DNA of 64,000 nucleotides from a virus. Where the stretch lies: positions 1-64,000 of the IMG/VR virus record IMGVR_UViG_3300036792_000267; one strand, 5' to 3'. Below, piece after piece: positions 19,532-62,675 of the stretch. Within the stretch, counting starts at the first letter, position 1, and each line of letters opens with the position of its first letter. The translations under genes were made by a program, and so were the position numbers. Below the pieces are notes generated by a model. It saw only the letters and a program-made list of their open reading frames with translations, made no database searches and had not been told where the DNA came from.

Positions 19532-20680
19532 GTGGCGTCTTCTCGTTCGGCTGTCTGCGTTGCACCTGCAGACTACGGAGAGCTTTTCATCGAGTACGGG
19601 GACGACATCAAGCGCGTGGTCTGGCGGCAGCTAGGAGCTATCGCCAAGCCCGTGGACGTTGATGACGGCGTTTCGTACATCCTGCAGCAGTTCATGGCCG
19701 CTGACGTGATTGCCCAGTACAAGCCGGGCACCATCAGCGAGTTCAACAAGAACCCGGTCACCTTCAAGGCCTTCATCCTGGCCAAGGTGGCCCTCTACTG
19801 CCGCGGCCTGCGCGAGTCGATCGGCCGCCGCGCCGGGCGCGAGCTGCTGCTGGTGGACTCGGGCGAGGACAGCTCGACGTGGCTCGGCCTGCTGAGCGGC
19901 ACGACGGACGAGTACCCGTCGCTTGCCGACACCGACGCCATGGACCAGCTCCGCGACGCGCTGGCGGCGTTCGCGCCGGCGCCGGGCAGTGAGCCCGTGC
20001 TGCCGCTGTTCGACGCGCTGGCCGAGCAGTTCGCCTCGGGCAGGACCGTCTCGGCGGCGGCGGTGCGCAAGAAGCTGGGTAAGAGCCAGGCCGAGACTGA
20101 GGCGTGGCTGGAGGAGCTGCGCGACGCGCTGCGCGAGGTTACCGCCGTCAGCCACCCGCTCCCCGTTCCGGAGCCCGAGCCTGTCTTCGCCCCGGCGGAC
20201 GACAACTGGATGGCCGACCTGCGCGAGGCAGCCTCCGGGGAGGTTACCTTCGAGCTGGGCGGCGTGAAGCTGTCGGCCGCTGAGGTCCGCGCCGCGGTCG
20301 CGGCGCTCAAGGAAGCCAAGGGCAACCGCGTGCTGCCCGCCTTCAAGGACACCGGCCACCGCCTCGCCGAGGCCGGCAAGACCTGGTACCTCGGGTTCGC
20401 CGAGACGGTCATGCAGCAGTACCCGCACCTGCGCACGCCTGCGCGACGGCACGCCGAGGGGCACTTCGGGCGCGTCAAGCAGGCTCTCATCTACGGCCTG
20501 GAGCAGCTGGTCGCCGACAGACCTGTGACTGAAGCTGTGCCCGTTCCTGTGGCTGAGCCTGTGGTTCCGGGCGCGGACCTGTGGGCCGAGCTGGAGTCGG
20601 TGCTCGGCCGGCTTCCCGGGTTTGACGCCGACACGACCGAGGCCGCGCTCGAAGCGGTCCGGCTGCTGGCGGCAGCATGA
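19532..20680 (+). CDS. Hypothetical protein, possibly divergent sigma-like regulator
   Basis: N-terminal ELFIEYGDDIKRVVW..DVDDGVS..FKAFIL loosely resembles sigma region 2. Confidence 0.55.
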   Translation: MASSRSAVCVAPADYGELFIEYGDDIKRVVWRQLGAIAKPVDVDDGVSYILQQFMAADVIAQYKPGTISEFNKNPVTFKAFILAKVALYCRGLRESIGRRAGRELLLVDSGEDSSTWLGLLSGTTDEYPSLADTDAMDQLRDALAAFAPAPGSEPVLPLFDALAEQFASGRTVSAAAVRKKLGKSQAETEAWLEELRDALREVTAVSHPLPVPEPEPVFAPADDNWMADLREAASGEVTFELGGVKLSAAEVRAAVAALKEAKGNRVLPAFKDTGHRLAEAGKTWYLGFAETVMQQYPHLRTPARRHAEGHFGRVKQALIYGLEQLVADRPVTEAVPVPVAEPVVPGADLWAELESVLGRLPGFDADTTEAALEAVRLLAAA

Positions 20681-42767: not shown

Positions 42768-43791
42768 CCTTGCGGCCCTCGCAACGGCGGTCCGGTCCAC
42801 ACGGCGGGACCTGGACCGCCAGGCGGGGCGTGCCCAGCAGGTGGCCAAGGCCGGCCAGCAGGCTGAGGCGGATATCAAGCGCCATCTGGAACGTGCCGAG
42901 TTGTGCGCCTGCACCGCAGCCCTGCTCACGAGGATCGGCGAGGAGGCGCAGGAGAGCGCCCGCGAGATGTTCGATGACCTGGCCACGCGGGCGCTGCGGG
43001 ACATCTTCGGCGACGAGTTTTCGTTCCGCCTGGTGCCCGGGGAGACTGGCGGCCAGGTGACCCTGGAGCCGGTCATCCGGTCGGAGTACGACGGCGAGGT
43101 CATCGAGACGCCCGTGCTCGAAGCGCGCGGCGGCGGCATGGCGGTGGTCGTCGGGTTTGTGCTGCAACTGGTCATGGTTCTGCTCACCCCGGGCGCGCGC
43201 AAGATCCTGTTCCTTGACGAGACGTTCGCGTTCGTGTCGGAGAGCTACACCGACCGGCTGGCGGAGTTCATCGCCAAGGTCGCTAAGAGCAAGGGCGTGC
43301 AGATTGTGATGATTACCCATGACCGGACGTTCGCGCAGTACGCCGACGTCAAGGTGCGCCTGGTGCTCGGCCCCGGCGGGGTAACCCAGGTCTACGAGGG
43401 GGAGAGCGAGTTATGCCAGGCCGTAGTCCTGACTCGATCGAGCGGTGGTTGGACGAGAACCTGTTTCGTTTCGATGGTCCCGCCCAGATGCTGGGGACCG
43501 AGCCCAACGCGACGCGCCGGAAGTGGGACCTCACTGACGTGCGGTGGCTGCTCGCCGCGAGCTGGGATTACAGCCAGGCAGCCGGCAACATGGCGATCCC
43601 CGCCCTGTACGACGCGATCCACAAGGCCGGGGTTTACACGCTGGCCGACCGTTTTTACCTTCCCGCCACCCCGCGCGACATGGACCTGCTGGAGCGCGGC
43701 CAGGTGCCGGTGTTCGGCATCGAGTCCAGGCACCAGGCCCGCGACTTCGACGTGCTGGGAACGTCTATCTCGTACACAGTTCTGTTCATGA
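42757..43791 (+). CDS. SbcC/Rad50-like ATPase, C-terminal half (effective end probably TTA 43411-43413)
   Basis: ARGGG signature, LFLDE Walker B, ITHD H-loop. Confidence 0.8.
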   Translation: MATDLAALATAVRSTRRDLDRQAGRAQQVAKAGQQAEADIKRHLERAELCACTAALLTRIGEEAQESAREMFDDLATRALRDIFGDEFSFRLVPGETGGQVTLEPVIRSEYDGEVIETPVLEARGGGMAVVVGFVLQLVMVLLTPGARKILFLDETFAFVSESYTDRLAEFIAKVAKSKGVQIVMITHDRTFAQYADVKVRLVLGPGGVTQVYEGESELCQAVVLTRSSGGWTRTCFVSMVPPRCWGPSPTRRAGSGTSLTCGGCSPRAGITARQPATWRSPPCTTRSTRPGFTRWPTVFTFPPPRATWTCWSAARCRCSASSPGTRPATSTCWERLSRTQFCS

Positions 43792-46385
43792 ACTTCTGTA
43801 AGTTCCTGACGATGAGCGGCATCCCGCTGCGCTGGAGGGACCGGAGGGAGAACGCTGCCGACTACCCGATGGTCATGGCTGGCGGCCAGGCCTACTGCGC
43901 GCCGGAGTTCATGGCCCCGGTGGTGGACTGCGTGTGGCTGGGGGAGGCCGAGGACGAAGAGGGCAATCCCGGCATCAGCGCGGTCTGCGAGGCTATCCGC
44001 AAGATGAAGGACGCGGGCTTCTGGCAGAGCGACCGCGAGCTGTGTTACCGGGACCTCGCGCGCACGTTCAACTTCCTGTACTTCCCTCGGTATACGGCGG
44101 TGGACTACCACTACGAGGACCGCGGGCTGCCGGAGCCGACGAAGATGGTGTCCGGTTACCGGAGCACGATCGAGGGTGTCGGGACCACCTTCAAGGCCCG
44201 GCGCGTGGCCAACCTCAACAAGGCTGACCTGATGACGTCAGCGCCGCTGCTGTTCGGCGACCCGGGCATGGGCTCGGGCGACGTGGAGATGCAGCGCGGG
44301 TGCCCAGCCTGGTGCGTGTTCTGCCGGATCGGCTGGGTGACCAAGCCTCCCCGGCAGGAGGACGTTGACCGCACTGTGGCCCGTGCGCTGAAGTGGCGCG
44401 ACAGCATGGGGTCGGTTGACATTTCCCTGGTCGCCCCCGACCCGCCTATGCACACCCAGAAGAAGAAGCTGATCGCCGAGCTGCTGGAGAACGTCACCGG
44501 CCGGGTGGACGCCTCCTCGATGCGGATTGACGACTACCTGTCCGACCCCGACTTCGCGCTGCTGCTGCAGGTTTCCGGGGTCACGGCGCTCACCCTCGGC
44601 CTGGAGGGCAACGCCCAGCACACGCGCGACCTGGCTGGCAAGGGCACGTCCGACGCCGACGTGGAGAAGGTCGTTACCCGGGCGATCCGGGCCGGCGTCC
44701 GCAAGATCAAGCTCTACTTCATCACCAACTGGCCCGGTGAGGAACTGGCCGACGTGATGCGGGTGGTGGAGCTGGGCAAGAAGCTGGCTGACATCCGCAA
44801 CGGGTTCGGCGAGGCCGCGGCCGGCGTGCAGATCATCTTCAGCTGGACCCCGTTGCTCATCGAGGCACAAACCCCGTTGCAGTGGTTTGAGGTCACTCCG
44901 CCCGACTACATGCTGCAGGAGGCCCTGACCGAGCTGCGGGACCACCGGATCTGGATCAAGATCGGATCTAAGGCTAGTCCGCCTAAGCTCGCGTTCTTCC
45001 AGGCGTGCCAGCGGGCCAACCGGGGCGCGGGCGAGGCCATCGTAGACGTCATCGAGCACTACGGCACGGCCAGCTGGGGCGGCTTCCCGAAGGACATGCG
45101 GGAAAGACTCGATGAGTCGATGAAAGTTCACGGGTTCCGCAACGGGCTCGATGACATCTTCGGCGAGCGGTTCTTCGAGGACCGGCTCGGCTGGGAGATG
45201 ATCGACACTGGCGTCAAGCCGTCGCTGATGTGGCGAGCTTACCGGGACATGGTGGAGTTCCTTGAAGGCACTGACGCCGGGACCTACGACGCTGATATCC
45301 CCGAGGGATATCACGGCAACGAGTGGGTGTCGCGCTGCGACCAGCATTGCTCGGGCAACTCGTGCGGGGCGTGTGACAAGCACGACCTGGAGCTGCGCCG
45401 CCAGTACGTGCAGGCCGTCGACCGCGACCTGTCCCGTGAGCCGGTCCGGCCCATCGACCAGGCGACCGTGGCTCAGCGGGTGCGGCTGAAGGTGGAGCGG
45501 CCGGCGAAGTTCCGTTTCGTGTCCGGCACCTCGCTGGAGTACATCATCCGCCGGGCTGGCTACCGGGCCCAGGCTGCCATGGCTGCGCTCGGCAGGCCCG
45601 TGCCAGACATGGCGGTGGAATCGGTGCGGCTGGCGTCGTCCGGCACCTCTTACCGCGAGCGCAGCGCCGGGGTCGACTACGCCGAGTTCGGCCTGACCCG
45701 TGTGGCCGACAACTTCGACATCGGCGAATACCTCATCAAGATGGCCGTGCACATGCATCCGCACTTGCACTGGAGCGGGAACTTCGCGGTGCTCCCGGCC
45801 GCGGCGAGGCTCCCTGCGCGCCCGCAGAGCTTGTGGGAGCTGGAGGTCGCTGACGATCCTGCGGTTCTGGTTAAGCGGCTGCAGCGGTGGGACGAGGCTG
45901 AGTCCGTGCCGGTGCTGGTCCGCGCGGACAGCTTCTACGCCGGCGCGACCGCTGTCGAGGGCGACGCTAAGGAGCACGTCTCGGACTTCTGGCTGGCCCG
46001 TGACGGGCAGCGCACCGTGCTGCGCATGCTGCTCAACGGCAAGCTCGGGCCCTACCAGGCGTACGCGGCGCTGGCCGGCAAGGCCAGCTGGATCGAGGCG
46101 GCGCGCTACACCGCGCAGCGCCTGGAGTTCTTCAGCGGCGGCGGGCAGCCGTGCGAGGGGTGCGGCATGCCGGTGCCGGCGTCCCTGCTCGACGTCCCGT
46201 GGAGCGAGCGGTACTGCCCGCGCTGCGGGGACGCGTCCGAAGGGAAGATAATCGCGGCGCTCGCGGGCGCCGGCGTATTACAGGTACCTGCGTTCGCACC
46301 TGGAGGAACCTGTGCAAGCACCCGGATTCAGCAAGCCGGCTCACGGTTACGGCCAGCCGTTCGGCATCAGCCCGGACACCACTGA
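43413..46385 (+). CDS. Radical SAM protein (TIGR03960-like) fused to TIGR03936/DUF2344-like domain (effective end probably TTA 46278-46280)
   Basis: EMQRGCPAWCVFC, DFDVLGTSISY, QRVRLKVERPAKFRFVS. Confidence 0.8.
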   Translation: MPGRSPDSIERWLDENLFRFDGPAQMLGTEPNATRRKWDLTDVRWLLAASWDYSQAAGNMAIPALYDAIHKAGVYTLADRFYLPATPRDMDLLERGQVPVFGIESRHQARDFDVLGTSISYTVLFMNFCKFLTMSGIPLRWRDRRENAADYPMVMAGGQAYCAPEFMAPVVDCVWLGEAEDEEGNPGISAVCEAIRKMKDAGFWQSDRELCYRDLARTFNFLYFPRYTAVDYHYEDRGLPEPTKMVSGYRSTIEGVGTTFKARRVANLNKADLMTSAPLLFGDPGMGSGDVEMQRGCPAWCVFCRIGWVTKPPRQEDVDRTVARALKWRDSMGSVDISLVAPDPPMHTQKKKLIAELLENVTGRVDASSMRIDDYLSDPDFALLLQVSGVTALTLGLEGNAQHTRDLAGKGTSDADVEKVVTRAIRAGVRKIKLYFITNWPGEELADVMRVVELGKKLADIRNGFGEAAAGVQIIFSWTPLLIEAQTPLQWFEVTPPDYMLQEALTELRDHRIWIKIGSKASPPKLAFFQACQRANRGAGEAIVDVIEHYGTASWGGFPKDMRERLDESMKVHGFRNGLDDIFGERFFEDRLGWEMIDTGVKPSLMWRAYRDMVEFLEGTDAGTYDADIPEGYHGNEWVSRCDQHCSGNSCGACDKHDLELRRQYVQAVDRDLSREPVRPIDQATVAQRVRLKVERPAKFRFVSGTSLEYIIRRAGYRAQAAMAALGRPVPDMAVESVRLASSGTSYRERSAGVDYAEFGLTRVADNFDIGEYLIKMAVHMHPHLHWSGNFAVLPAAARLPARPQSLWELEVADDPAVLVKRLQRWDEAESVPVLVRADSFYAGATAVEGDAKEHVSDFWLARDGQRTVLRMLLNGKLGPYQAYAALAGKASWIEAARYTAQRLEFFSGGGQPCEGCGMPVPASLLDVPWSERYCPRCGDASEGKIIAALAGAGVLQVPAFAPGGTCASTRIQQAGSRLRPAVRHQPGHH

Positions 46386-52381: not shown

Positions 52382-53197
52382 GTGTCGCTGGATAAGATCC
52401 TCGCCCTGTCCGGCACTGGCGCCGGGCTGCCGGACCTGGACGCTGAGCTGCTGCTCGCCGTCCAGGCTGCCTCCCGGGAGCTGGCCTTGCTGCTGGCCTC
52501 CGGTGACGACAGCAGCGATGGCGACAAGGGCGGCGGGAACAAGCCCGGCAAGAACGGCGATGACGACGACAGCGGCGATGGCGGCGAGCACACGGGTCAC
52601 GCTACCTACAAGGCGATGGTGAAGCGGAACATCCCGCCGAAGAGGGCCGCCGCCATGTGCGCCAAGTCGGACAAGAACGTCAAGGCCACCCAGCTGGCCG
52701 AGTCCATCTCGGTCATCCTCGCCGGCAAGCCGGGCCAGGACATCGCGCTGGTGACGCTCACCCCGGCCAGCGAGACCGCCGAGGGGCGCAAGAAGGCGGC
52801 CGAGTCGGGGCACGCGCTGCCGGGCGGCAGTTACCCGATCGAGGACAAGAAGCACCTGCACTCGGCTGCGGTGCTGGCCGCCTCCGGGCACGGCGACACC
52901 GGCGCCGCCAAGGCGCTGATCCGCAAGCGGGCGCGCGAGCTGGGCGTGGACGTCAAGACGCTGCCTGGCTTCGGCGGCTCGGACGAGGACAACGAGAAGG
53001 CCGCCGCCTCGATGGTGGCGCTGGCCAAGCAGGCGGGCGGCGGGGTGGCGATGCACCACGCGCCGATGACCGGCACCCACGCGCACGCGCACGCGGTCGG
53101 GGCCACTCATGAGCACGACCACCAGCATTTCGGTGACAACAACCACAGCGGCGGCCCGCTGCACCGGCCGGGCTCTGAGCCGAGAAGGGACTGGTAA
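52382..53197 (+). CDS. Hypothetical protein with phage head-associated motif and His-rich tail
   Basis: RKKAAESGHALPGGSYPI...IRKRARELG. Confidence 0.65.
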   Translation: MSLDKILALSGTGAGLPDLDAELLLAVQAASRELALLLASGDDSSDGDKGGGNKPGKNGDDDDSGDGGEHTGHATYKAMVKRNIPPKRAAAMCAKSDKNVKATQLAESISVILAGKPGQDIALVTLTPASETAEGRKKAAESGHALPGGSYPIEDKKHLHSAAVLAASGHGDTGAAKALIRKRARELGVDVKTLPGFGGSDEDNEKAAASMVALAKQAGGGVAMHHAPMTGTHAHAHAVGATHEHDHQHFGDNNHSGGPLHRPGSEPRRDW

Positions 53198-53199
53198 CC

Positions 53200-53379
53200 A
53201 TGTTCGCTTGGGTAGGCGCGCTGTTCGCCGCCATCGCCTTCATCCTGTACGCAGCCAAGTCCGGTACCAATGTCCCGTGGACCCCGATGGGCTTCACGAT
53301 CCTCGCCATCCTCTGCCTGCTACTGCACGTGGCGTTCTGGTGGTACCCGGTCGGCCGCCGCCCGGGGCCGCCAGCGTGA
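53200..53379 (+). CDS. Small two-TM membrane protein
   Basis: MFAWVGALFAAIAFILYAAK...FTILAILCLLLHVAFWW. Confidence 0.6.
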   Translation: MFAWVGALFAAIAFILYAAKSGTNVPWTPMGFTILAILCLLLHVAFWWYPVGRRPGPPA

Positions 53380-55343
53380 CCTCGGCCGGCGCTGCCGCCG
53401 CGGCCCTGCTCGGGTCGGCCGGCGGCACGGGGACGTCGGCGGGCGGGACCGGCATCTTCGAGGAGGAGCCGGTCCCGCTCGACGTGTTCGTACGGGACCG
53501 CGACTACCTGGCCAACCCGCCGCTGAGCGAGGTCCAGTACGAGGCGGTGCGGCACGCTGAGCGGGTCTACTACCTGGCCACCTACGACCTGCTCAGCCAG
53601 AGCGCCGACAAGCGGGTGCGGGACTACTGGAGCCAGCCGACGCGGATGGTCAACTTCCTCGAACTCGAATGGGGCAAGGGCGGCGGCAAGGACCACACCT
53701 GCCGGATGATTGCCATGCGGGTGTGCTACCTGCTGCTGTGCCTGAAATCCCCGCAGGACTACTACCAGATGCCTGAGCAGGACAGCATTCACGTTCTCAA
53801 CGTCGCGTCGTCCTCCAAGCAGGCCCAGCGCGCGTTTTTCGCCCCGATGCGCCGCGCCGTGCAGCGGCCCGGCTGCTGGTTTCAGCGCAAGGCGGGAATC
53901 GACATCCTCGACGCCGCCGAGCGGCAGCGCCGCGGTGCCCGCGGCGACCGGACCGTCACCCTGCTGGACACCATCCGGTTCGAGCACAATATTGAGGCCG
54001 TCTCCGGGCACAGCGACGCCGACAGCCAGGAGGGGCTCAACCTGATTCTCGGCATCGCCGACGAGATCGACGCGTTCCGGTCGGCGGCGGAACTGGCGAA
54101 GAACGCGGGCGCCAAGCAGCGCGAGTCCTCCAGCTCGGCCGAGGCGATCCTCGACATGATTCGCACAAGTGCGACCACAAGGTTTCCGGAAACCTTCAAG
54201 AACGTGCACATCTCCTATCCCAGGTATCTGGGCAGCACCATCCAGCAGCTGGTTGCCAGGGGGAAGGCAGACAACGAGGCTCGCGGGAACAAGAGCCGCT
54301 ACTACGTGTCCGGCCCGCTGGCCACCTGGGAGGCGAACCCTCGTATCAAGGGCAAGGAGTCGTTCGCGGAGGACTACCTGAAGGACCCCGCCATGGCGGA
54401 GGCCAAGTACGAGTGCAAGCCGCGGCGCGCGGTCAACCCGTACTTCGCCAACGAGGAAGCCATCCGCGACTGCCTCACCGAGTACGCCCAGCCGCCCCTG
54501 GCAGTGAGCTACATCCGCGAGGGCGCGTCGTGGAAGCCGGTCTACACGTTCAGCTCCGAGTGCTACCCGGTGAAAGGCGCCTTGTACGCCATGCACGCCG
54601 ACCTGGCGGCCACCGGCGACCGGGCCGGCATCACCCTCGCCCACGTCAAGCGCTGGCAGGACCACGCGCTGACCGGGTACGACGAGGACGGGCTGGAGAT
54701 CAAGGTCGCTGAGCGCCGCCCGGTGGTGAAAGTGGACTTCACCATCAGCTACGAGGCCGACGCCGGGGCCCGCCCGCCGATGGAGATCCAGATCCGGTGG
54801 GCCCGCATGCTGTGCCTGGAACTGCGCCGGATGGGATTCCCGGTGACGTTCTTCTCCTTCGACCAGTGGCAGTCGAAAGACTCGATGCAGATCCTGGAAT
54901 CGCACGGCATCGAGACCGACCGCTTCTCCACCGACGTGTCCGAGGAGGGCTGGCGCACCCTGCGCGACGTTATGTACGAGGGGCGCCTGGAGATGCCCGC
55001 CCGCGAGCTGACGGTCATCGAGCTGCTGGGCTTGAGCCGCTTGCCAAATGGCAAGATCGACCACCTGGGCGACAGCTCCAAGGACGAGGCCGACAGCCTG
55101 GCGGGCGCGGTCTCCGGGGCGCTGCGCATCGGCGGCATGGAGGACGCCAGCGGCAAGCGGGCCTACCCTGGCCAGATCTCGTTCTACGGGCCGGCGGCCG
55201 AGATTCCCTTCCCCGCGGGAATGCCGGCGGCCATGTCGGTGCTCGGGCCTGACCAGTTCATGCCGCCCGACCGGCCTGGCATGGAGTACGGCAGCAGCTA
55301 CCTGGACGACTGGGGCTCGGTCAGCGGGGACTACCTGCAGTAA
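53376..55343 (+). CDS. terL: Terminase large subunit
   Basis: WGKGGGKD, QAQRAFF, IADEID, ISYP, HADLA, DQWQS, DH..SSKDEADS. Confidence 0.88.
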   Translation: MTSAGAAAAALLGSAGGTGTSAGGTGIFEEEPVPLDVFVRDRDYLANPPLSEVQYEAVRHAERVYYLATYDLLSQSADKRVRDYWSQPTRMVNFLELEWGKGGGKDHTCRMIAMRVCYLLLCLKSPQDYYQMPEQDSIHVLNVASSSKQAQRAFFAPMRRAVQRPGCWFQRKAGIDILDAAERQRRGARGDRTVTLLDTIRFEHNIEAVSGHSDADSQEGLNLILGIADEIDAFRSAAELAKNAGAKQRESSSSAEAILDMIRTSATTRFPETFKNVHISYPRYLGSTIQQLVARGKADNEARGNKSRYYVSGPLATWEANPRIKGKESFAEDYLKDPAMAEAKYECKPRRAVNPYFANEEAIRDCLTEYAQPPLAVSYIREGASWKPVYTFSSECYPVKGALYAMHADLAATGDRAGITLAHVKRWQDHALTGYDEDGLEIKVAERRPVVKVDFTISYEADAGARPPMEIQIRWARMLCLELRRMGFPVTFFSFDQWQSKDSMQILESHGIETDRFSTDVSEEGWRTLRDVMYEGRLEMPARELTVIELLGLSRLPNGKIDHLGDSSKDEADSLAGAVSGALRIGGMEDASGKRAYPGQISFYGPAAEIPFPAGMPAAMSVLGPDQFMPPDRPGMEYGSSYLDDWGSVSGDYLQ

Positions 55344-55853: not shown

Positions 55854-55884
55854 CTTGACACGAGTCAAGCAGAGGTAGTACGAT
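55854..55884 (+). promoter_or_regulatory. Promoter of tRNA array with operator
   Basis: TTGACA-18-TACGAT; CTTGAC-ACGA-GTCAAG. Confidence 0.7.
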
Positions 55885-56566: not shown

Positions 56567-56639
56567 GGGGTCTTAGCTCAGCTGGAAGAGCATCTGCTCG
56601 GCAGACAGAAGGTCACGGGTTCAAGTCCCGTAGGCTCCA
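56567..56639 (+). tRNA. tRNA-Ala(GGC), C33
   Basis: G3:U70, loop TCGGCAG. Confidence 0.85.
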
Positions 56640-56775
56640 CTGGACCGGATGGCAAGTCTGTCGCCATGTGTAGAGGGCCGTGACGGGTACCTCAGCGGCG
56701 GTTATACCGAAAGCCGGGTGTCTCCGGTGGCAAAGCGGCAGGTTTCGCGGGACATCTCCGTCATCCGGTTCTCCT

Positions 56776-56848
56776 GGGGCTTTAGCGCAGCTGGTAGCGC
56801 GCTGCATTCGCACCGCAGAGGCCGCGGGTTCGACTCCCGCAAGCTCCA
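56776..56848 (+). tRNA. tRNA-Ala(CGC)
   Basis: G3:U70, loop TTCGCAC. Confidence 0.88.
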
Positions 56849-57124
56849 CGTGGCGGACCGTGGCACGGCATCCGCAGCAGGGCCGATCACCCTGTGCACA
56901 GGTAACCGGCCTTGAATGCCCGGCGCGAGTCCAAGCGTCCGGGGCGGAGGCACCCGCCACTCCAATTCCCGGTGAGTAAGCCGTGGCAGGCTGAGGGGCC
57001 GGGGCAATGCGGAACAAGGCACGTGCTGGTCTGCCCCGTCGGTTCCAACCTCCGGGCCTGCTGGCCAAGGTCGCCTCGCCAGGCGGCTGATGCGGCGATG
57101 CAGGACCATGACGACCAGATTCAA

Positions 57125-57198
57125 CTAGCTATGGCGCAGCTTGGTAGCGCATCGCGTTCGGGACGCGAGGGCCGCAGGTTCAAATCCTGCTAGCCAGA
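57125..57198 (+). tRNA. tRNA-Pro(CGG)
   Basis: Loop TTCGGGA. Confidence 0.88.
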
Positions 57199-57199
57199 C

Positions 57200-57274
57200 T
57201 GGGGTGTAGGGAAGATTGGTCATCCCGCCTGCCTTGGGTGCAGGAGATCGCCGGTCCGAGTCCGGTCACCCCGA
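57200..57274 (+). tRNA. tRNA-Pro(TGG), C55
   Basis: Loop CTTGGGT, T-loop TCCGAGT. Confidence 0.85.
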
Positions 57275-57320
57275 CCCGTGTGAGTCAACCGACACACGTA
57301 AATCCCCATCGGTTGAGCCT

Positions 57321-57394
57321 GGGGCCTTAGCTCAGTTGGTAAGAGCGTCTGGTTGAAACCCGGAAGGTCGGTGCGTCGAGTGCACCAGGTCCCA
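57321..57394 (+). tRNA. tRNA-Phe(GAA)
   Basis: Loop TTGAAAC, T-loop GTCGAGT. Confidence 0.82.
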
Positions 57395-57408
57395 CGCAGT
57401 AACACAAT

Positions 57409-57481
57409 GGGGATGTGGCCGAGCGGCTACAGGCTCCTGCCCTCCAAGCAGGCTACGCGGGTTCGATTCCCGTCATCCCCT
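57409..57481 (+). tRNA. tRNA-Gly(TCC), C33
   Basis: Loop CCTCCAA, U73. Confidence 0.82.
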
Positions 57482-57588
57482 CTGGTACGGGCCAGACTCA
57501 TAATCTGGTTGCGTGCAAGCGGCTGTCGCGCCGCGGCCGGGCCGCCTGACGGGGGGCGACACCTTCGTCAGGGGCGCCGGTTGTTTAC

Positions 57589-57661
57589 GTGCCGCTAACT
57601 CAATTGGCAGAGTACCGTCCTCTTAAGTCGGGAGTTGGGGGTTCAAGTCCCTCGCGGCGCA
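57589..57661 (+). tRNA. tRNA-Lys(CTT)
   Basis: Loop CTCTTAA. Confidence 0.88.
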
Positions 57662-57744
57662 CTGGAGGCGGTCCGGAGACCGCGCCCGTGGCTGACAACG
57701 ACGTACAGGTCTCCTGCTGTCAGCGGGCCCGCCTCCAGCTTTTC

Positions 57745-57820
57745 GGGCGAGTAGCAGAACCGGCATATGCGGCGGCCTCAAAACCCGTGTCTCCTGCGGG
57801 TTCAAGTCCCGCCTCGCCCA
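57745..57820 (+). tRNA. tRNA-Leu(CAA)
   Basis: Loop CTCAAAA, short variable arm. Confidence 0.85.
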
Positions 57821-57917
57821 CGCGGCTGGCAAGGCCGTTCTGCGAATCCTTGCCCGGTCCCCTCTGCGGGAGGAACAGGTCCGTCAATCCGGGGTCAGCA
57901 AAGAGCCTCGGCAACTA

Positions 57918-57989
57918 TGGAGTATGGGGTAATCGGCAGCCCGGCAGATTCTGGCTCTGTCAGTCTTGGTTCGAGTCCAGGTACTCCAG
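57918..57989 (+). tRNA. tRNA-Gln(CTG)
   Basis: U1-A72, loop TTCTGGC. Confidence 0.88.
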
Positions 57990-58079
57990 CGAGAGCAGCA
58001 GGTCAAGGTGCATCTCGATCTCGTCATTGGTGATGAGGCTGACAGCCAGGTCGATGAAGTCAAGTTCGTCCATACTCAT
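57960..58079 (-). CDS. Small acidic peptide (39 aa)
   Basis: MSMDELDFIDLAVSLITNDEIEMHLDLLLSLEYLDSNQD, downstream of DinB-family gene. Confidence 0.45.
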   Translation of the reverse strand: MSMDELDFIDLAVSLITNDEIEMHLDLLLSLEYLDSNQD

Positions 58080-58108
58080 TAAGTTCGCGAGCAGGCCGAA
58101 CTGTGAGG

Positions 58109-58654
58109 TCAGTCAGGAACGTAGAGGTGGTGCGGGAGGATGTTCAGCGTGTAAGTCCCGTCGAACCGCGGCATGCTGCCGGCCAGCTCCCCCAGGTGCC
58201 AGTAGACGTGGACCGCTAGGTGCTCCCACACGGCCCCGCCGGTCAGCAGGGACACCGGCACCCCGGCAGGCGCGGGAGCGTCCCACTGGCTGAGGTCGAA
58301 CTCGTCCAGTACCCGCAGCGCCTTGGTGACCGTCTGGCAGAACACGCGCAGCAGGACCACCTTCGGGAACGTCTCCCGGTCGACGCTGGCTGCCTTGCTG
58401 ACGGCACTGGGCTCGGCCAGGTTTGTCTCGTTGAACACCTGGTGGACCGAGCGGCTGAGGACCGTCCGCCGCCCGTCGAGCCACGAGCTGAACAGGTCAG
58501 CCACGCAGGCCAGGTGCCCGATCGTCCAGGCAGCGGAGAACCCGGTCGGGAGTTCTTCGAAGAACTCGTCGTTACTGACCGGCTCCAGGCCGAGTAGCAG
58601 TATGTTGCCGCTGCGGTCGATCTGCCGCGCGACGACTTGCTTAGCAGTAGTCAT
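58109..58654 (-). CDS. DinB/YfiT-superfamily metalloprotein
   Basis: SAAWTIGHL...HLAVHVYWHLGEL. Confidence 0.8.
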   Translation of the reverse strand: MTTAKQVVARQIDRSGNILLLGLEPVSNDEFFEELPTGFSAAWTIGHLACVADLFSSWLDGRRTVLSRSVHQVFNETNLAEPSAVSKAASVDRETFPKVVLLRVFCQTVTKALRVLDEFDLSQWDAPAPAGVPVSLLTGGAVWEHLAVHVYWHLGELAGSMPRFDGTYTLNILPHHLYVPD

Positions 58655-58665
58655 GCTTTTACTAC

Positions 58666-58739
58666 GCCCCGGTAGCTCAGCCGGAAGATGCGCTCGCTTC
58701 GTAAGCGAGAGGTCCCCAGTTCAACTCTGGGTCGGGGCT
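58666..58739 (+). tRNA. tRNA-Thr(CGT)
   Basis: Loop TTCGTAA. Confidence 0.85.
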
Positions 58740-58859
58740 CGGTCAGGCTGAGGCAGGGGAGGCCCTTCACCGGGTCGCACTAGGTTGCCCGCAGCCCAGT
58801 AGCTTGGGCACGGGAGAAGGATGCCGGGCAGCACGGCCCGGGTGTAGGCCTGACAACAA

Positions 58860-58943
58860 GCCCGAATGCTGCAATCGGTAGACTGACCCGCTTGAGGAGT
58901 GGGTGTCCTTCGGGGCGTGCGGGTTCGAGTCCCGCTTCGGGCA
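58860..58943 (+). tRNA. tRNA-Leu(GAG)
   Basis: Loop TTGAGGA, long variable arm. Confidence 0.85.
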
Positions 58944-59040
58944 CCTGGGGGAGATCCGGTGTAGCGCACCGGCTGGGGGCCAGGGCCCCTGGTAGTTCAA
59001 AAGTCGCTGACAGCCCTGGCAGAAAGAACACCCCCTCTAC

Positions 59041-59113
59041 GCCGGCTTAGCTCATCGGGCAGAGCGCCCGCCTTGTAAGCGGAAGGTGACCCGTTCGAGT
59101 CGGGTAGCCGGCT
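59041..59113 (+). tRNA. tRNA-Thr(TGT)
   Basis: Loop CTTGTAA. Confidence 0.88.
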
Positions 59114-59213
59114 CGGAGGCTGCATGCAAGGTACGGCGCGCTAACGCGCGGGACAGCGCAGGAACCCGAGTACCGTCGTAAACCGACTGTCCTTGCAGCC
59201 TCCTTCAGCTCGC

Positions 59214-59287
59214 TCCGGGGTGGGTTGTGCGGCATCCCGTCTTGACTTTGGATCAAGGGCACGCCAGTTCGATTCTGGCCCCCGGAA
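59214..59287 (+). tRNA. tRNA-Gln(TTG)
   Basis: Loop CTTTGGA. Confidence 0.8.
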
Positions 59288-59296
59288 CAAGCACAT

Positions 59297-59370
59297 GCCC
59301 CGGTAGCTCAGTTGGCGAGAGCGTTTCCCTGGTACGGAGGAGGTCCCGCGTTCGATTCGCGGTCGGGGCT
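59297..59370 (+). tRNA. tRNA-Thr(GGT)
   Basis: Loop CTGGTAC. Confidence 0.85.
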
Positions 59371-59381
59371 CGCAAGATCAT

Positions 59382-59454
59382 GCCGACGTGGTGCAGCTGG
59401 TGGCACATCGCCTTGCCAAGGCGGAGGTCGCGGGTTCGAATCCCGTCGTCGGCT
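59382..59454 (+). tRNA. tRNA-Gly(GCC)
   Basis: Loop TTGCCAA. Confidence 0.88.
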
Positions 59455-59590
59455 CGTGTACCCCGCCGTGGCCACCGGGTAAGGGGGTTCAGCACATGCC
59501 CGGGTCGCGCCCGGCACGGTGGCACGGCTGCCCTGGCAGCCTGCTCTCCTGACGACAGGGGACAAGGGGGCTCAGCCCTCCCAGGGACGC

Positions 59591-59674
59591 GGGCGGGTGG
59601 CGGAATAGGCAGACGCGCACGGTCCAGGCCCGTGTATCCCGCAGGATGTGAGGGTTCAAGTCCCTCCTCGCCCA
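59591..59674 (+). tRNA. tRNA-Leu(CAG), C33
   Basis: Loop TCCAGGC, long variable arm. Confidence 0.85.
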
Positions 59675-59765
59675 CTTTCGGGTCCGCTCCCGTGGCCCGG
59701 GGGCGTCGCGCATCGCGCCGCGGCGGTTCCAGTCCTCCTGCTAGCGGAGGGCGAACGGGAGGCCC

Positions 59766-59856
59766 GGAGGGATGGCACGAGTGGCTTAAGGCGCTGTCCT
59801 GCTAAGGCAGAGGGTCTGCGAGAGCGGCCCCGCGGGTTCGAATCCCGCTCCCTCCG
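59766..59856 (+). tRNA. tRNA-Ser(GCT)
   Basis: Loop CTGCTAA, long variable arm. Confidence 0.88.
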
Positions 59857-59941
59857 CTTCTGTACCGGATACCAGCCAAGTCCGTTAGGTGGTGACGCAG
59901 GTACAGCGCCCGCGGGAGACGGCAATCCTTGGCGGGCACCT

Positions 59942-60027
59942 GGAGGGTTCGCCTAGTCCGGCCTATGGCGCTGCGTCGGAAGCGCAGTTGGTTAACAGCC
60001 TCGCGAGTTCGAATCTCGCACCCTCTG
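59942..60027 (+). tRNA. tRNA-Ser(GGA), C33
   Basis: Loop TCGGAAG. Confidence 0.85.
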
Positions 60028-60030
60028 CCC

Positions 60031-60122
60031 CGGAGAGGTAAATCGAGTTGGCCTACCGATCGCGGTCCCGAAAACCGTCAGGGGGTTCGTCCCCCGTGTG
60101 AGTTCGAGTCTCACCCTCTCTG
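60031..60122 (+). tRNA. tRNA-Ser(CGA), C33
   Basis: Loop CCCGAAA. Confidence 0.82.
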
Positions 60123-60315
60123 CGCATGGCTTGAGGCGGTACCCGCGGGCCGCTGCAGGTACCGCCTCCGTAATCGCCAGGCGAATGAATCTGCTCGGAT
60201 TCAGCTTCGAGACCAGACTCGGTGCCTTGCAGGCGGCTGTTACCGCCTGCACCCGAAAGCATACATACGGTTACGATCTTGAGCAAGCGGCGAAATAGCT
60301 CAAGATGTCTGGCAC

Positions 60316-60388
60316 GGGCGGGCAGCTCGATGGTTCGAGCAGCTTCCTGATACGGAGAAGGTTGGAGGTTCAAGTCCTCCTCCGCCCA
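60316..60388 (+). tRNA. tRNA-Ile(GAT), C8
   Basis: Loop CTGATAC. Confidence 0.82.
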
Positions 60389-60399
60389 CGTACGACCGG

Positions 60400-60473
60400 A
60401 GGCCGGTAGCTCAGCTGGTCAGAGCGACACGCTTATAACGTGTGCGTCAGGAGTTCAAGCCTCCTCCGGCCTA
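60400..60473 (+). tRNA. tRNA-Ile(TAT)
   Basis: Perfect stems, loop CTTATAA. Confidence 0.85.
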
Positions 60474-60476
60474 CGA

Positions 60477-60552
60477 CGCGGGGTAGCTCAGTTGGCAGAG
60501 CAGCCGGCCCATAACCGGAAGGTCGCGGGTCCGAGTCCCGTCCTCGCTACCA
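60477..60552 (+). tRNA. tRNA-Met(CAT), initiator-like, C33 C55
   Basis: C1 mismatch, loop CCCATAA, encoded CCA. Confidence 0.85.
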
Positions 60553-60553
60553 C

Positions 60554-60627
60554 GGGCCGCTAGCTCAACAGCGAAGAGCAGTTGCCTTTTAAGCTTCAGG
60601 TTCCGGGTTCGAGCCCCGGGCGGCCCA
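60554..60627 (+). tRNA. tRNA-Lys(TTT)
   Basis: Loop CTTTTAA. Confidence 0.8.
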
Positions 60628-60641
60628 CTAGCCTGGTTCCT

Positions 60642-60788
60642 GTGAAGACTCTGGCCTGGCTCCTCGATGAAGCCCTGGACCGGCTCCCGTGCCGCGAGGA
60701 CGGCCGGTGGCGCTGGTACGGCGAGTGGGGCTGCCGACTGGAGAACAGGTTTCCTGTCCTGCGCGAGTGGATGTACGAGCGCCGGTAG
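60642..60788 (+). CDS. Small Trp/Arg-rich hypothetical protein
   Basis: MKTLAWLLDEALDRLPC..; stop lies inside next tRNA. Confidence 0.45.
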   Translation: MKTLAWLLDEALDRLPCREDGRWRWYGEWGCRLENRFPVLREWMYERR

Positions 60789-60852
60789 CTCAGCCGGATA
60801 GAGCGGCTTCCTTCTAAGAAGACGGCCGGGGGTTCGAATCCCTCCCGGCGCG
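60779..60852 (+). tRNA. tRNA-Arg(TCT)
   Basis: Loop CTTCTAA. Confidence 0.88.
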
Positions 60853-60863
60853 CGCATGAACAT

Positions 60864-60941
60864 GGTCTTGCAGAGCAGTCCGGAGTGCTCGCCTGCCCCT
60901 CAAGCAGGAGATCGTCGGTTCGAATCCGTCCAGGACCACCA
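60864..60941 (+). tRNA. tRNA-Glu(CTC), C8 C33
   Basis: Loop CCCTCAA, encoded CCA. Confidence 0.82.
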
Positions 60942-60942
60942 A

Positions 60943-61016
60943 GCCCCCGTCGACTAGCGGCCTAAGTTACCGCCCCTTCAAGGCGGCGGACACCGGTTCG
61001 AATCCGGTTGGGGGCA
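60943..61016 (+). tRNA. tRNA-Glu(TTC), C33
   Basis: Loop CCTTCAA. Confidence 0.85.
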
Positions 61017-61050
61017 CGTGGGCATCAGGATTTATCCTGGTGTCCTTCGA

Positions 61051-61126
61051 CGCGGAGTAGGGGAGTTCGGTCGTCCCCGCGGCGCCCATAACGCCGAGAT
61101 CGCGGGTCCGAATCCCGCCTCCGCCA
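61051..61126 (+). tRNA. tRNA-Met(CAT), initiator-like, C33 C55
   Basis: C1:C72 mismatch, loop CCCATAA. Confidence 0.82.
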
Positions 61127-61230
61127 CGGGAAGGAACTGCCCAGCTCCCTTGCATCCGGATGCATCGGCACGCGCGGCTGGCGTTCCGGCACAGCGGCCC
61201 GGCCCCGGTCGTTCCCAAACGGGGCCTCTA

Positions 61231-61303
61231 TCCGGTGTGGCGCAATCGGCAGCGCAACTGACTGTTAATCAGAGGGTTCCCGGTCCGAGTCCGGGCACCG
61301 GAG
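61231..61303 (+). tRNA. tRNA-Asn(GTT), C55
   Basis: Loop CTGTTAA. Confidence 0.88.
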
Positions 61304-61412
61304 CGCGTGGGCCTGGGGCCTGCGGGATACAGCCTGGTCCGCGGCCGGGCCCGGGTCCCGTTGGGCGGAGAAGCAGCCATACCCAGGGAAGCGGGGGTGC
61401 CCCGCACATCAT

Positions 61413-61487
61413 GGTGACGTAACTCAGCATGGCCAGAGTGCTGCCTTGTCACGGCAGAAGTCGCGGGTTCAAATCCCGTCGTTACCG
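61413..61487 (+). tRNA. tRNA-Asp(GTC)
   Basis: Loop TTGTCAC, G73. Confidence 0.88.
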
Positions 61488-61637
61488 CGTGCCCCGTCGT
61501 CGCACGATGACCGTGCAGGCCAGGGCGAACAGCGCTAGCAGGCCGATGACTGGCCATGTTAGCCAGTGCAGCCCGGCCGCCTTCAGCAGGTCATCAAGGA
61601 TGAAGCCGAGCGCGACGCCGACCAGGATGAACAGCAT
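61482..61637 (-). CDS. Small two-TM membrane protein (51 aa)
   Basis: MLFILVGVALGFILDDLLKAAGLHWLTWPVIGLLALFALAC. Confidence 0.55.
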   Translation of the reverse strand: MLFILVGVALGFILDDLLKAAGLHWLTWPVIGLLALFALACTVIVRRRGTR

Positions 61638-61639
61638 CG

Positions 61640-61777
61640 TTAGCCGAGCCCGGCGCGACGCCGCCGCTCGGCGTGCTCGAAGTCACGGATGCGCCGGATG
61701 GCGAGGTGGCCGCCGAACTTGAGGCCGGTCGCGATGCCAGCGCCGAAGACGGCTAGCAGCAAGATGAAAGTGCCCAC
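61640..61777 (-). CDS. Small membrane protein (45 aa)
   Basis: MGTFILLLAVFGAGIATGLKFG..RRRR. Confidence 0.55.
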   Translation of the reverse strand: MGTFILLLAVFGAGIATGLKFGGHLAIRRIRDFEHAERRRRAGLG

Positions 61778-61831
61778 GTGATTAAACGGTACGTCACCCC
61801 CTGGTCTCTTTACCAGGGGCAAGCAAGACAT

Positions 61832-61905
61832 GGCCGTGTAGCTCAGCAGGCTAGAGCGTTTCCATGACACGGAAGAGGTCCCTGGTTCAAGTCCAGGTAC
61901 GGCCA
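61832..61905 (+). tRNA. tRNA-Val(GAC)
   Basis: Loop ATGACAC. Confidence 0.88.
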
Positions 61906-61906
61906 C

Positions 61907-61979
61907 GCGCGCGTAGCTCAACGGATAGAGCTGCAGTCTACGGAACTGTGTGTTGGAGGTTCGAGTCCTCTCGTGCGCA
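61907..61979 (+). tRNA. tRNA-Arg(ACG)
   Basis: Loop CTACGGA. Confidence 0.88.
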
Positions 61980-62039
61980 CTGGACGGCAGGTGAGCAGGC
62001 TGACACCGCCTTCGGGCTCAGCCCCCTGCCGTCTTTCAA

Positions 62040-62113
62040 GTCCGGTTAGCTCAGCCTGGGAGAGCGCTGCCTCCACACGGCAGGCGTCGGGGGTTCAAAT
62101 CCCTCACTGGACA
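62040..62113 (+). tRNA. tRNA-Val(CAC), C33
   Basis: Loop TCCACAC. Confidence 0.85.
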
Positions 62114-62114
62114 C

Positions 62115-62190
62115 GGTGGGATTTGCCGTCGAGGGAAGGCGCAGGGTTGTGGTCCCTGCAAGGCGGGTCCGACTCCCGTATCTCACCCCA
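62115..62190 (+). tRNA. tRNA-His(GTG), C55
   Basis: G-1:C73, loop TTGTGGT, encoded CCA. Confidence 0.82.
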
Positions 62191-62191
62191 A

Positions 62192-62271
62192 AGCGACAGT
62201 GGGCGGCGGCACGCCCAGCGGCCTGTAAAGCCGTGGCCTTGGCAGACCTGGGTCGGCACCAGGTGTCGCTA
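62192..62271 (+). tRNA. Divergent tRNA-Tyr(GTA)
   Basis: Loop CTGTAAA; atypical T-loop GTCGGCA. Confidence 0.65.
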
Positions 62272-62364
62272 CGTTAAGGTTTTCCCGAGAAAAGGAGAGC
62301 CTATGCCCAGGTACACGATTCCCTGCGTCGCCCACTGTGAAAGCGGGGCATTAACGCAGGTCTT

Positions 62365-62438
62365 GCGCTCGTAGCTCAGTGGACAGAGCACCGGCTTCCG
62401 GAGCCGGGTTGTCGGAGGTTCGAGTCCTCTCGGGCGCG
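62365..62438 (+). tRNA. tRNA-Arg(CCG)
   Basis: Loop TTCCGGA. Confidence 0.88.
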
Positions 62439-62442
62439 CTAT

Positions 62443-62519
62443 GGCGGTATGGCCGAGTGCGGTTCAGGCACACGTCTGCAAAACGTGGTACCCGGGTTCG
62501 ACCCCCGGTACCGCCTCCA
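62443..62519 (+). tRNA. tRNA-Cys(GCA)
   Basis: Loop CTGCAAA, U73, encoded CCA. Confidence 0.88.
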
Positions 62520-62520
62520 T

Positions 62521-62594
62521 GACCCTGTAGCTCAGCTGGACAGAGCTGCTTCCCCCTAAGGAGCGAGTCGCTGGTTCGAGTCCAGCCAGGGCCA
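62521..62594 (+). tRNA. tRNA-Arg(CCT), C33
   Basis: Loop CCCCTAA. Confidence 0.82.
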
Positions 62595-62638
62595 CGTACG
62601 CCGGTGCTCACGCTGTGGCAGTTCCGAGGTCCAATTAC

Positions 62639-62675
62639 TCCCCGTCGTCCCCTGGGACTGGCGGGGATTTTCCTT
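62639..62675 (+). terminator. Probable terminator closing tRNA array
   Basis: TCCCCGTC-GTCCC..GGGAC-TGGCGGGGA then TTTT. Confidence 0.55.

Follow-up and report, generated by a model that had tools for sequence, protein, structure and literature searches.

The DNA analysed here (the window) spans positions 1 to 64,000 of the 151,377-bp viral record IMGVR_UViG_3300036792_000267, a genome with 68.4% guanine plus cytosine (GC) and a 127-bp terminal repeat, rated 100% complete by CheckV. Every transfer RNA (tRNA) gene of this phage lies in a single plus-strand block of 38 genes in 6.4 kb (Table 1). ARAGORN with default settings detects 37 of them, and a lowered threshold adds the gene for Ser-CGA. 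The block has the properties of the tRNA arrays of phages and plasmids: at least 20 clustered genes on the same strand, all 20 amino acids and constrained cloverleaves. Four genes (Ser-GGA, Ser-CGA, His and Tyr) fall below the Rfam gathering score for tRNA; all four are syntenic in relatives.

Our interest is in the bases found at tRNA positions that are otherwise almost invariantly U, in particular position 33, where U is regarded as making the anticodon U-turn of elongator tRNAs (PMC5041475). When the genes were parsed as cloverleaves, C was found at position 33 in 11 of the 38, at position 55 in five and at position 8 in two; together, 15 of the 38 genes carry at least one of these replacements. 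The parse reproduced exactly what the initial annotation had reported: the 11 tRNAs with C33, the five with C55 in a TCCGA T-loop (Pro-TGG, both Met, Asn and His), the two with C8 (Ile-GAT and Glu-CTC) and the total of 15. The five A·C stem mismatches that it had listed were also recovered, together with other types: the acceptor, anticodon and T stems of the 38 genes contain 21 mismatches, comprising seven A·C, five U·U, three C·U, three A·G, two C·C and one A·A. Position 8 is A in Ser-CGA and G in Tyr, and C8 is therefore not a C-specific pattern.

Table 1. Features of the tRNA array and its surroundings (window positions unless marked as genome positions).
Feature	Position	Strand	Remarks
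Terminase large subunit	53109..55343	+	Left neighbour of array; Pfam/PHROGs
Promoter-like site TTGACA-18-TACGAT within TTGAC/GTCAA palindrome	55855..55884	+	Consensus match only
tRNA array, 38 genes, 20 amino acids	56197..62595	+	ARAGORN; Rfam RF00005 above gathering score for 32-34
tRNA-Ala(GGC)	56567..56640	+	C33, loop tcGGCag; C31·A39 mismatch; G3:U70 kept; loop allele also in L001, L004, L152
tRNA-Pro(TGG)	57200..57276	+	C55, T-loop tccgagt; C55 also in L002, L005
tRNA-Gly(TCC)	57409..57482	+	C33; also in L004, L008
DinB_2-family gene	58109..58654	-	Pfam; not part of the tRNA feature
tRNA-Leu(CAG)	59591..59675	+	C33, unique to this phage (0/8 relatives)
tRNA-Ser(GGA)	59941..60030	+	C33; below Rfam gathering score
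tRNA-Ser(CGA)	60032..60123	+	C33 and A8; weak Rfam match; C33 in 7/7 close relatives keeping the gene
tRNA-Ile(GAT)	60316..60389	+	C8; C8 also in L005, L006; A8 in L008
tRNA-Met(CAT) no. 1	60477..60552	+	C33 and C55; 1:72 mismatch (initiator-like); CCA encoded
tRNA-Glu(CTC)	60864..60941	+	C33 and C8
tRNA-Glu(TTC)	60943..61017	+	C33
tRNA-Met(CAT) no. 2	61051..61127	+	C33 and C55; 1:72 mismatch (initiator-like)
tRNA-Asn(GTT)	61231..61304	+	C55, T33; C33 in 6/7 relatives
tRNA-Val(CAC)	62040..62114	+	C33
tRNA-His(GTG)	62116..62190	+	C55; C73 kept; below Rfam gathering score
tRNA-Arg(CCT)	62521..62595	+	C33; A2·C71 mismatch
Terminator-like hairpin and T-run	62650..62666	+	Consensus match only; 55 nucleotides (nt) past last tRNA
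Portal gene	genome 64249-65853		Right of array, beyond window; Pfam/PHROGs

C33 is rare in other sets of tRNAs. Four cultured actinophages together have one in 83 (Streptomyces phages Kela, 0/10, and Francob, 0/21; Microbacterium phages Pumpernickel, 1/27, and Magritte, 0/25), against 11 in 38 here (Fisher p = 9e-6). Two actinobacterial plasmid arrays contain 3/37 and 4/32 (7/69 together). All 58 chromosomal tRNAs from a sample of bacteria have T33, although with a sample GC-content of 31-61% this is a generic control only; a single Val-GAC gene read from a Nonomuraea chromosome also has T33. Among viral arrays that lie outside the array family described below, C33 occurs in 4/52 tRNAs at a GC-content of 0.59-0.64 and in 3/79 at a GC-content below 0.5, while viral tRNAs outside arrays show 2/70. 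Some C33 is tolerated by accessory tRNA arrays generally, unrelated viral arrays having 3-8%. The relation between C33 and GC-content across arrays is confounded, in that all high-GC arrays of the IMG/VR sample belong to the same array family. C33 is unrelated to codon usage (Spearman rho 0.02).

Relatives of the phage were found by a terminase search in IMG/VR; their terminases are 70-93% identical and their arrays are syntenic. In the nine arrays of this clade, 75 of 303 tRNAs have C33: richness in C33 is a trait of the lineage. In seven of the arrays (251 tRNAs) the base at position 33 is T in 188, C in 62, A in one and never G; at position 55 the counts are T 235, C 15 and no purine; at position 54, T 240, C 4, G 4 and A 2; and at position 8, T 224, C 6, G 14 and A 7. 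The share of C at these sites thus declines from 24.7% at position 33 to 6% at 55, 2.4% at 8 and 1.6% at 54. The two further arrays have C33 in 7/37 and 6/15 tRNAs, and no C55. C55 occurs in 15 of the 303 tRNAs of the clade compared to none of 152 in controls (p = 0.004), and with its five copies this phage marks the upper end of the clade (p = 0.03 compared to the other members). Tabulation of related arrays, which the initial annotation had proposed, reveals C33 throughout the lineage and C55 more rarely. Of its claim that U is systematically replaced by C, a pyrimidine-only enrichment is borne out at positions 33 and 55; a single process spanning all three positions fails because residues other than U at position 8 are mostly G or A, and because changes at position 33 run both ways.

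Orthologous tRNAs of the clade are about 73% identical, and the mean pairwise difference between orthologues at position 33 (0.276) is close to that at R57 (0.255) and Y32 (0.268). Position 33 evolves like an ordinary two-state site. Among the 33 orthologue groups with at least six members, 19 vary at this position, 13 have T throughout and just one, Ser-CGA, has C throughout; with the two further arrays added, C33 appears even in tRNAs that had seemed always T, such as Pro-TGG and Cys. The phage has C33 in ten tRNAs that are mostly T among its relatives. In three of the ten, Leu-CAG and the two Met tRNAs, C33 is found in no other phage of the clade, the Met tRNAs of related phages having U33. 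Conversely, four of its tRNAs that mostly carry C33 among relatives (Thr-GGT, Asn, Asp and Val-GAC) have T33. Turnover between orthologues runs in both directions. Part of this toggling may be accounted for by the exchange of old loop alleles: the two anticodon-loop alleles of Ala-GGC, tcGGCag and atGGCat, differ jointly at several positions and recur in distant phages. The rate of C33 also varies with base 36, being 11% with G36, 25% with A36, 27% with T36 and 36% with C36 (arrays G000, L001-L008, L136 and L137; pyrimidine versus purine at 36, per tRNA, Mann-Whitney p = 0.03), which hints weakly at structural tolerance.

Four further high-GC IMG/VR phage contigs of 74-162 kb (L152, L163, L191 and L212), missed by the terminase search, carry arrays that share this gene order, so that the array family extends beyond the terminase clade. 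Ser-CGA has T33 in these four. Arrays of the wider group have C33 in 7-33% of their tRNAs. In two relatives, L004 and L136, Ser-CGA is replaced by Ser-AGA (T33, A34).

The genes of the clade retain the form of functional tRNAs. Where both sides of a stem pair differ between orthologues, pairing is kept in 2,985 of 3,094 cases (96.5%), and where one side differs it is kept in 740 of 906. C56 is invariant (250/250 tRNAs), and G53, A58 and C61 are 97% conserved. Discriminator bases obey the bacterial identity rules (C73 in His; U73 in Cys, Gly and Thr; G73 in Ser, Asn, Asp and Trp), and both Ala tRNAs retain G3:U70. Only four of the 38 genes encode CCA, and the host CCA-adding enzyme is thus needed for the remainder. 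By these measures of structural constraint the genes are apparently working tRNAs.

Consensus motifs at its two ends suggest that the array is a putative transcription unit of its own. The promoter-like site lies 342 nt upstream of the first tRNA, and its palindromic motif, TTGACAC(C/G)AGTCAAGCAG..TA...T, is found at -270 to -342 in this phage and in five of six close relatives (L001, L002, L004, L006 and L008); a terminator-like hairpin follows the last gene. The motif GCTCACGCTGTGGCAG, directly after the last tRNA, is conserved in most relatives.

We favor, with moderate confidence, the view that in this lineage position 33 has been relaxed to any pyrimidine and is held under weak selection for U. 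We infer that the array of this uncultured high-GC phage is expressed as a functional tRNA operon, and that C33 tRNAs are probably used as transcribed, functioning without editing. Strong GC-biased mutation pressure would keep supplying U-to-C transitions, and weak selection against C33 would balance this supply such that about one quarter of the tRNAs are C33 at any time, with the identity of those tRNAs shifting from phage to phage. C55 would reflect the same process at a more constrained site, hence its rarity, while C8 and the A·C stem mismatches would be ordinary mutational noise in fast-evolving genes that are still selected to fold.

One way to quantify the selection is to compare the proportion C/(C+T) among classes of site. 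Four-fold sites have 0.85 and the spacers of the array 0.65, but position 33 has only 0.25-0.29. Neutral GC drift, a match to which the initial annotation had named among the grounds for refuting any function, does not fit such values; because position 33 falls below neutral composition, weak selection for U is indicated, with a scaled coefficient of roughly 2-3 as calculated from odds ratios. The graded shares of C at positions 33, 55, 8 and 54 fit sites of increasing constraint.

There are partial precedents. The eukaryotic cytoplasmic initiator tRNA-Met is a natural, functional tRNA with C33 (PMC5041475), a base that the two initiator-like Met tRNAs of this phage share; most of the C33 tRNAs here are, however, elongators, and related phages have Met tRNAs without it. 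In its general features the array resembles those of actinobacterial phages and plasmids, with dozens of same-strand tRNAs in a single block within a large mobile genome of high GC-content, nearly all amino acids represented, a tRNA content that codon usage does not explain, and structurally constrained genes; cluster C1 mycobacteriophages, for example, carry about 33 tRNAs (PMC10264068). It differs from these arrays in its C33 (25-29%, against 1/83 in the phages and 7/69 in the plasmids), in its C55 and in its location between terminase and portal genes.

Several observations weigh against a relaxed position 33. Phages of similar GC-content have little or no C33 (Kela and Magritte, for example, have none), and the share of C33 within the wider array family, which spans 7-40%, does not follow GC-content, which means that GC pressure alone fails to explain the richness of this lineage. 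Ser-CGA has kept its C33 in 7/7 close relatives despite about 30% sequence divergence, a pattern that looks like selection for C in that tRNA. Finally, U33 of elongator tRNAs is described as close to invariant and as important for their structure (PMC5041475), and the full function of C33 tRNAs is accordingly an assumption.

It is also possible, although we consider it rather unlikely, that C33 and perhaps C55 have been selected because they hide phage tRNAs from a host anticodon nuclease or modifying toxin acting at U33 or the T-loop. The shifting set of C33 tRNAs would then mirror arms races with different hosts. The fixation of C33 in Ser-CGA of close relatives is in keeping with this, as are its frequency in Thr-GGT, Asn and Val-GAC (6 of 7-8 relatives), the persistence of alleles such as tcGGCag of Ala-GGC in distant members of the array family, the reading of the heavily used codons GCC, CTG and GAG by C33 tRNAs, and the excess of C33 that GC-content alone leaves unexplained. 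Against it stand the confinement of C33 to only about one quarter of the tRNAs, in a set that differs even between close relatives, the reversion to T in this phage of four sites at which C33 is common, and the finding that U33 is favored relative to neutral composition. Moreover, we know of no nuclease that depends on U33.

Escape of phage tRNAs from anticodon nucleases by way of loop changes is a published hypothesis, and a near-complete tRNA set would suit independence from a host tRNA pool under attack (PMC10264068). For phage T5, escape of a tRNA from a nuclease by point changes has been demonstrated experimentally (PMC12409363). The T5 tRNAs for Lys, Thr and Asn that confront AriB of the PARIS system resemble those described here in being non-canonical in or near the anticodon loop, and they stay functional (PMC12409363). 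The proven T5 changes, however, map to positions 39 and 41, sites of recognition and cleavage by the nuclease, and not to U33 (PMC12409363); in the present case the changed position varies between close relatives. For a second nuclease, gamma-toxin, a U33C change is without effect on cleavage (PMC2275089).

Much less probable is the multi-site editing system put forward in the initial annotation, in which a C encoded at position 33 or 55, or within an A·C mismatch, would be converted after transcription to U or pseudouridine by an unrecognised enzyme, either of the host or of the phage and then lacking a detectable deaminase fold. Such a system would render genomic C and T equivalent at two sites, and it sits well with two features of the data: replacements are confined to pyrimidines (62 C, one A and no G at position 33; 15 C and no purine at position 55), and T and C are freely interchanged among orthologues. 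C-to-U editing of tRNA exists in other systems, namely at C8 by CDAT8 in Methanopyrus kandleri and at C32 by TrcP in Vibrio cholerae. To our knowledge, editing of tRNA has never been described at position 33 or 55. In trypanosomatids, C-to-U editing occurs at position 32 (PMC2175311). With these three systems the phage shares a genomic C where the mature tRNA needs U; the known systems, however, act at position 8 or 32, and the sites here are 33 and 55.

The search for an enzyme gives no encouragement to editing. The initial annotation had seen no deaminase in the window, and profile and motif searches extend this absence to the complete genome. In all six frames of the genome there is no match to PF00383 (dCMP_cyt_deam_1), PF14437 (MafB19-deam), PF00849 (PseudoU_synth_2) or PF01509 (TruB_N), with nothing at E<=1 for the first two; four relatives and Magritte likewise lack PF00383. 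The HxE..PCxxC motif, for which a genome search had been proposed alongside one for pseudouridine synthases, occurs in none of the 209 predicted reading frames. A six-frame scan for the deaminase motif returned eight matches, none in a predicted coding frame, and one of the HAE..PCWSC form (genome 111798-111965) was set aside as intergenic and without PF00383 support. Among 50 of the largest non-structural proteins, comparison with Pfam reveals replication, recombination, lysis and regulatory domains only, and no RNA-modifying domain. The phage thus differs from the CDAT8 case in having no detectable CDA-fold deaminase, and C8 in just two of 38 genes with G8 and A8 commoner across the clade; it differs from the TrcP case in that no protein combining a deaminase with an RluA-type pseudouridine synthase domain was found.

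The pattern of substitution points the same way. If editing made genomic C neutral, GC pressure would be expected to carry C33 to 65-85%, and the observed figure is 25%. At position 8, G and A (14 and seven tRNAs of the clade) are commoner than C (six), so tolerance there cannot rest on C-to-U repair. Of the 158 stem mismatches in the clade, 61% are beyond C-to-U repair. A·C accounts for the other 62 (39%), and by our own calculation a transition:transversion bias of 2-3 predicts 33-43%; the match arises because A·C is the sole mismatch one transition away from a Watson-Crick pair. With no enzyme found, an A·C share of the size that transitions produce, and T33 above its neutral expectation, multi-site editing is disfavored.

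That the array is decaying, its deviant genes being pseudogenes drifting towards GC, is hardly credible: the 21 stem mismatches, the odd T-loops of Phe and Tyr and the four genes under the Rfam gathering score are what decay might produce, but covariation leads us to reject it, there being no loss of stem pairing, of invariant tertiary bases or of identity elements, while purines are essentially absent from position 33 and both gene order and the promoter-like motif are conserved across phages whose terminases have diverged to 70-93% identity.

Phage tRNA arrays as such are already known; our literature search found no paper describing arrays rich in C33. The present analysis contributes a clade of nine arrays with two-way turnover at position 33, a quantitative case that U is favored there, and explicit tests against multi-site editing. 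An entire phage lineage treats position 33 as open to any pyrimidine, in tRNAs whose structure is in other respects strongly selected. If C33 tRNAs decode without editing, then the requirement for U33 is much softer than textbooks hold, at least in the translation of this host; if C33 protects against a host enzyme, then it would be a new and simple form of counter-defence. The clade supplies natural U33/C33 pairs of the same tRNA for direct testing.

Some individual tRNAs deserve mention. Besides sharing the 1:72 mismatch, C33 and C55, the two Met tRNAs have nearly identical T arms, which suggests partial gene conversion between them. Phe (57321-57395) and Tyr (62192-62272) both have G54, with T-loops gtcgagt and gtcggca, respectively, and Tyr combines its G8 with a very short D-loop. 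Compared to the arrays of relatives, tRNA-Ile(TAT) is present in this phage alone. In the 38-gene parse the array is without tRNA-Leu(TAA) and tRNA-Leu(TAG); the codon TTA accounts for ten of 32,789 codons in the predicted genes of the whole genome.

Genes flanking the array, identified with Pfam and PHROGs, comprise the terminase, the portal, a Zn-ribbon protein and DinB_2, and nothing related to RNA. The DinB_2 gene is an insertion specific to this phage: the gap between Gln-CTG and Thr-CGT measures 675 nt, compared to 8-136 nt in most relatives. The nearest cultured phage is Magritte, with a capsid identity of 47.6%. There the terminase gene lies next to the portal gene and the array of 25 tRNAs, without C33, is elsewhere (68-74 kb), whereas in the present phage the array is inserted between the two genes.

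A search with the clamp loader for the host returned distant matches only (30-45% identity, many phyla). Pfam matches to DivIVA, DUF2637 and GntR in the phage genome, together with its GC-content, fit an actinobacterium, which is probably the host. The genome of the phage specifies a TraG/TrwB-like coupling-protein domain, a KfrA_N-like protein, DivIVA, DUF932 and a radical SAM protein of 990 aa, the five loci being at window positions 6384-8096, 19532-20680 and 43413-46385 and at genome positions 105174-105815 and 144035-145165. It also encodes its own PolA, RecA, DnaB, sliding clamp and clamp loader.

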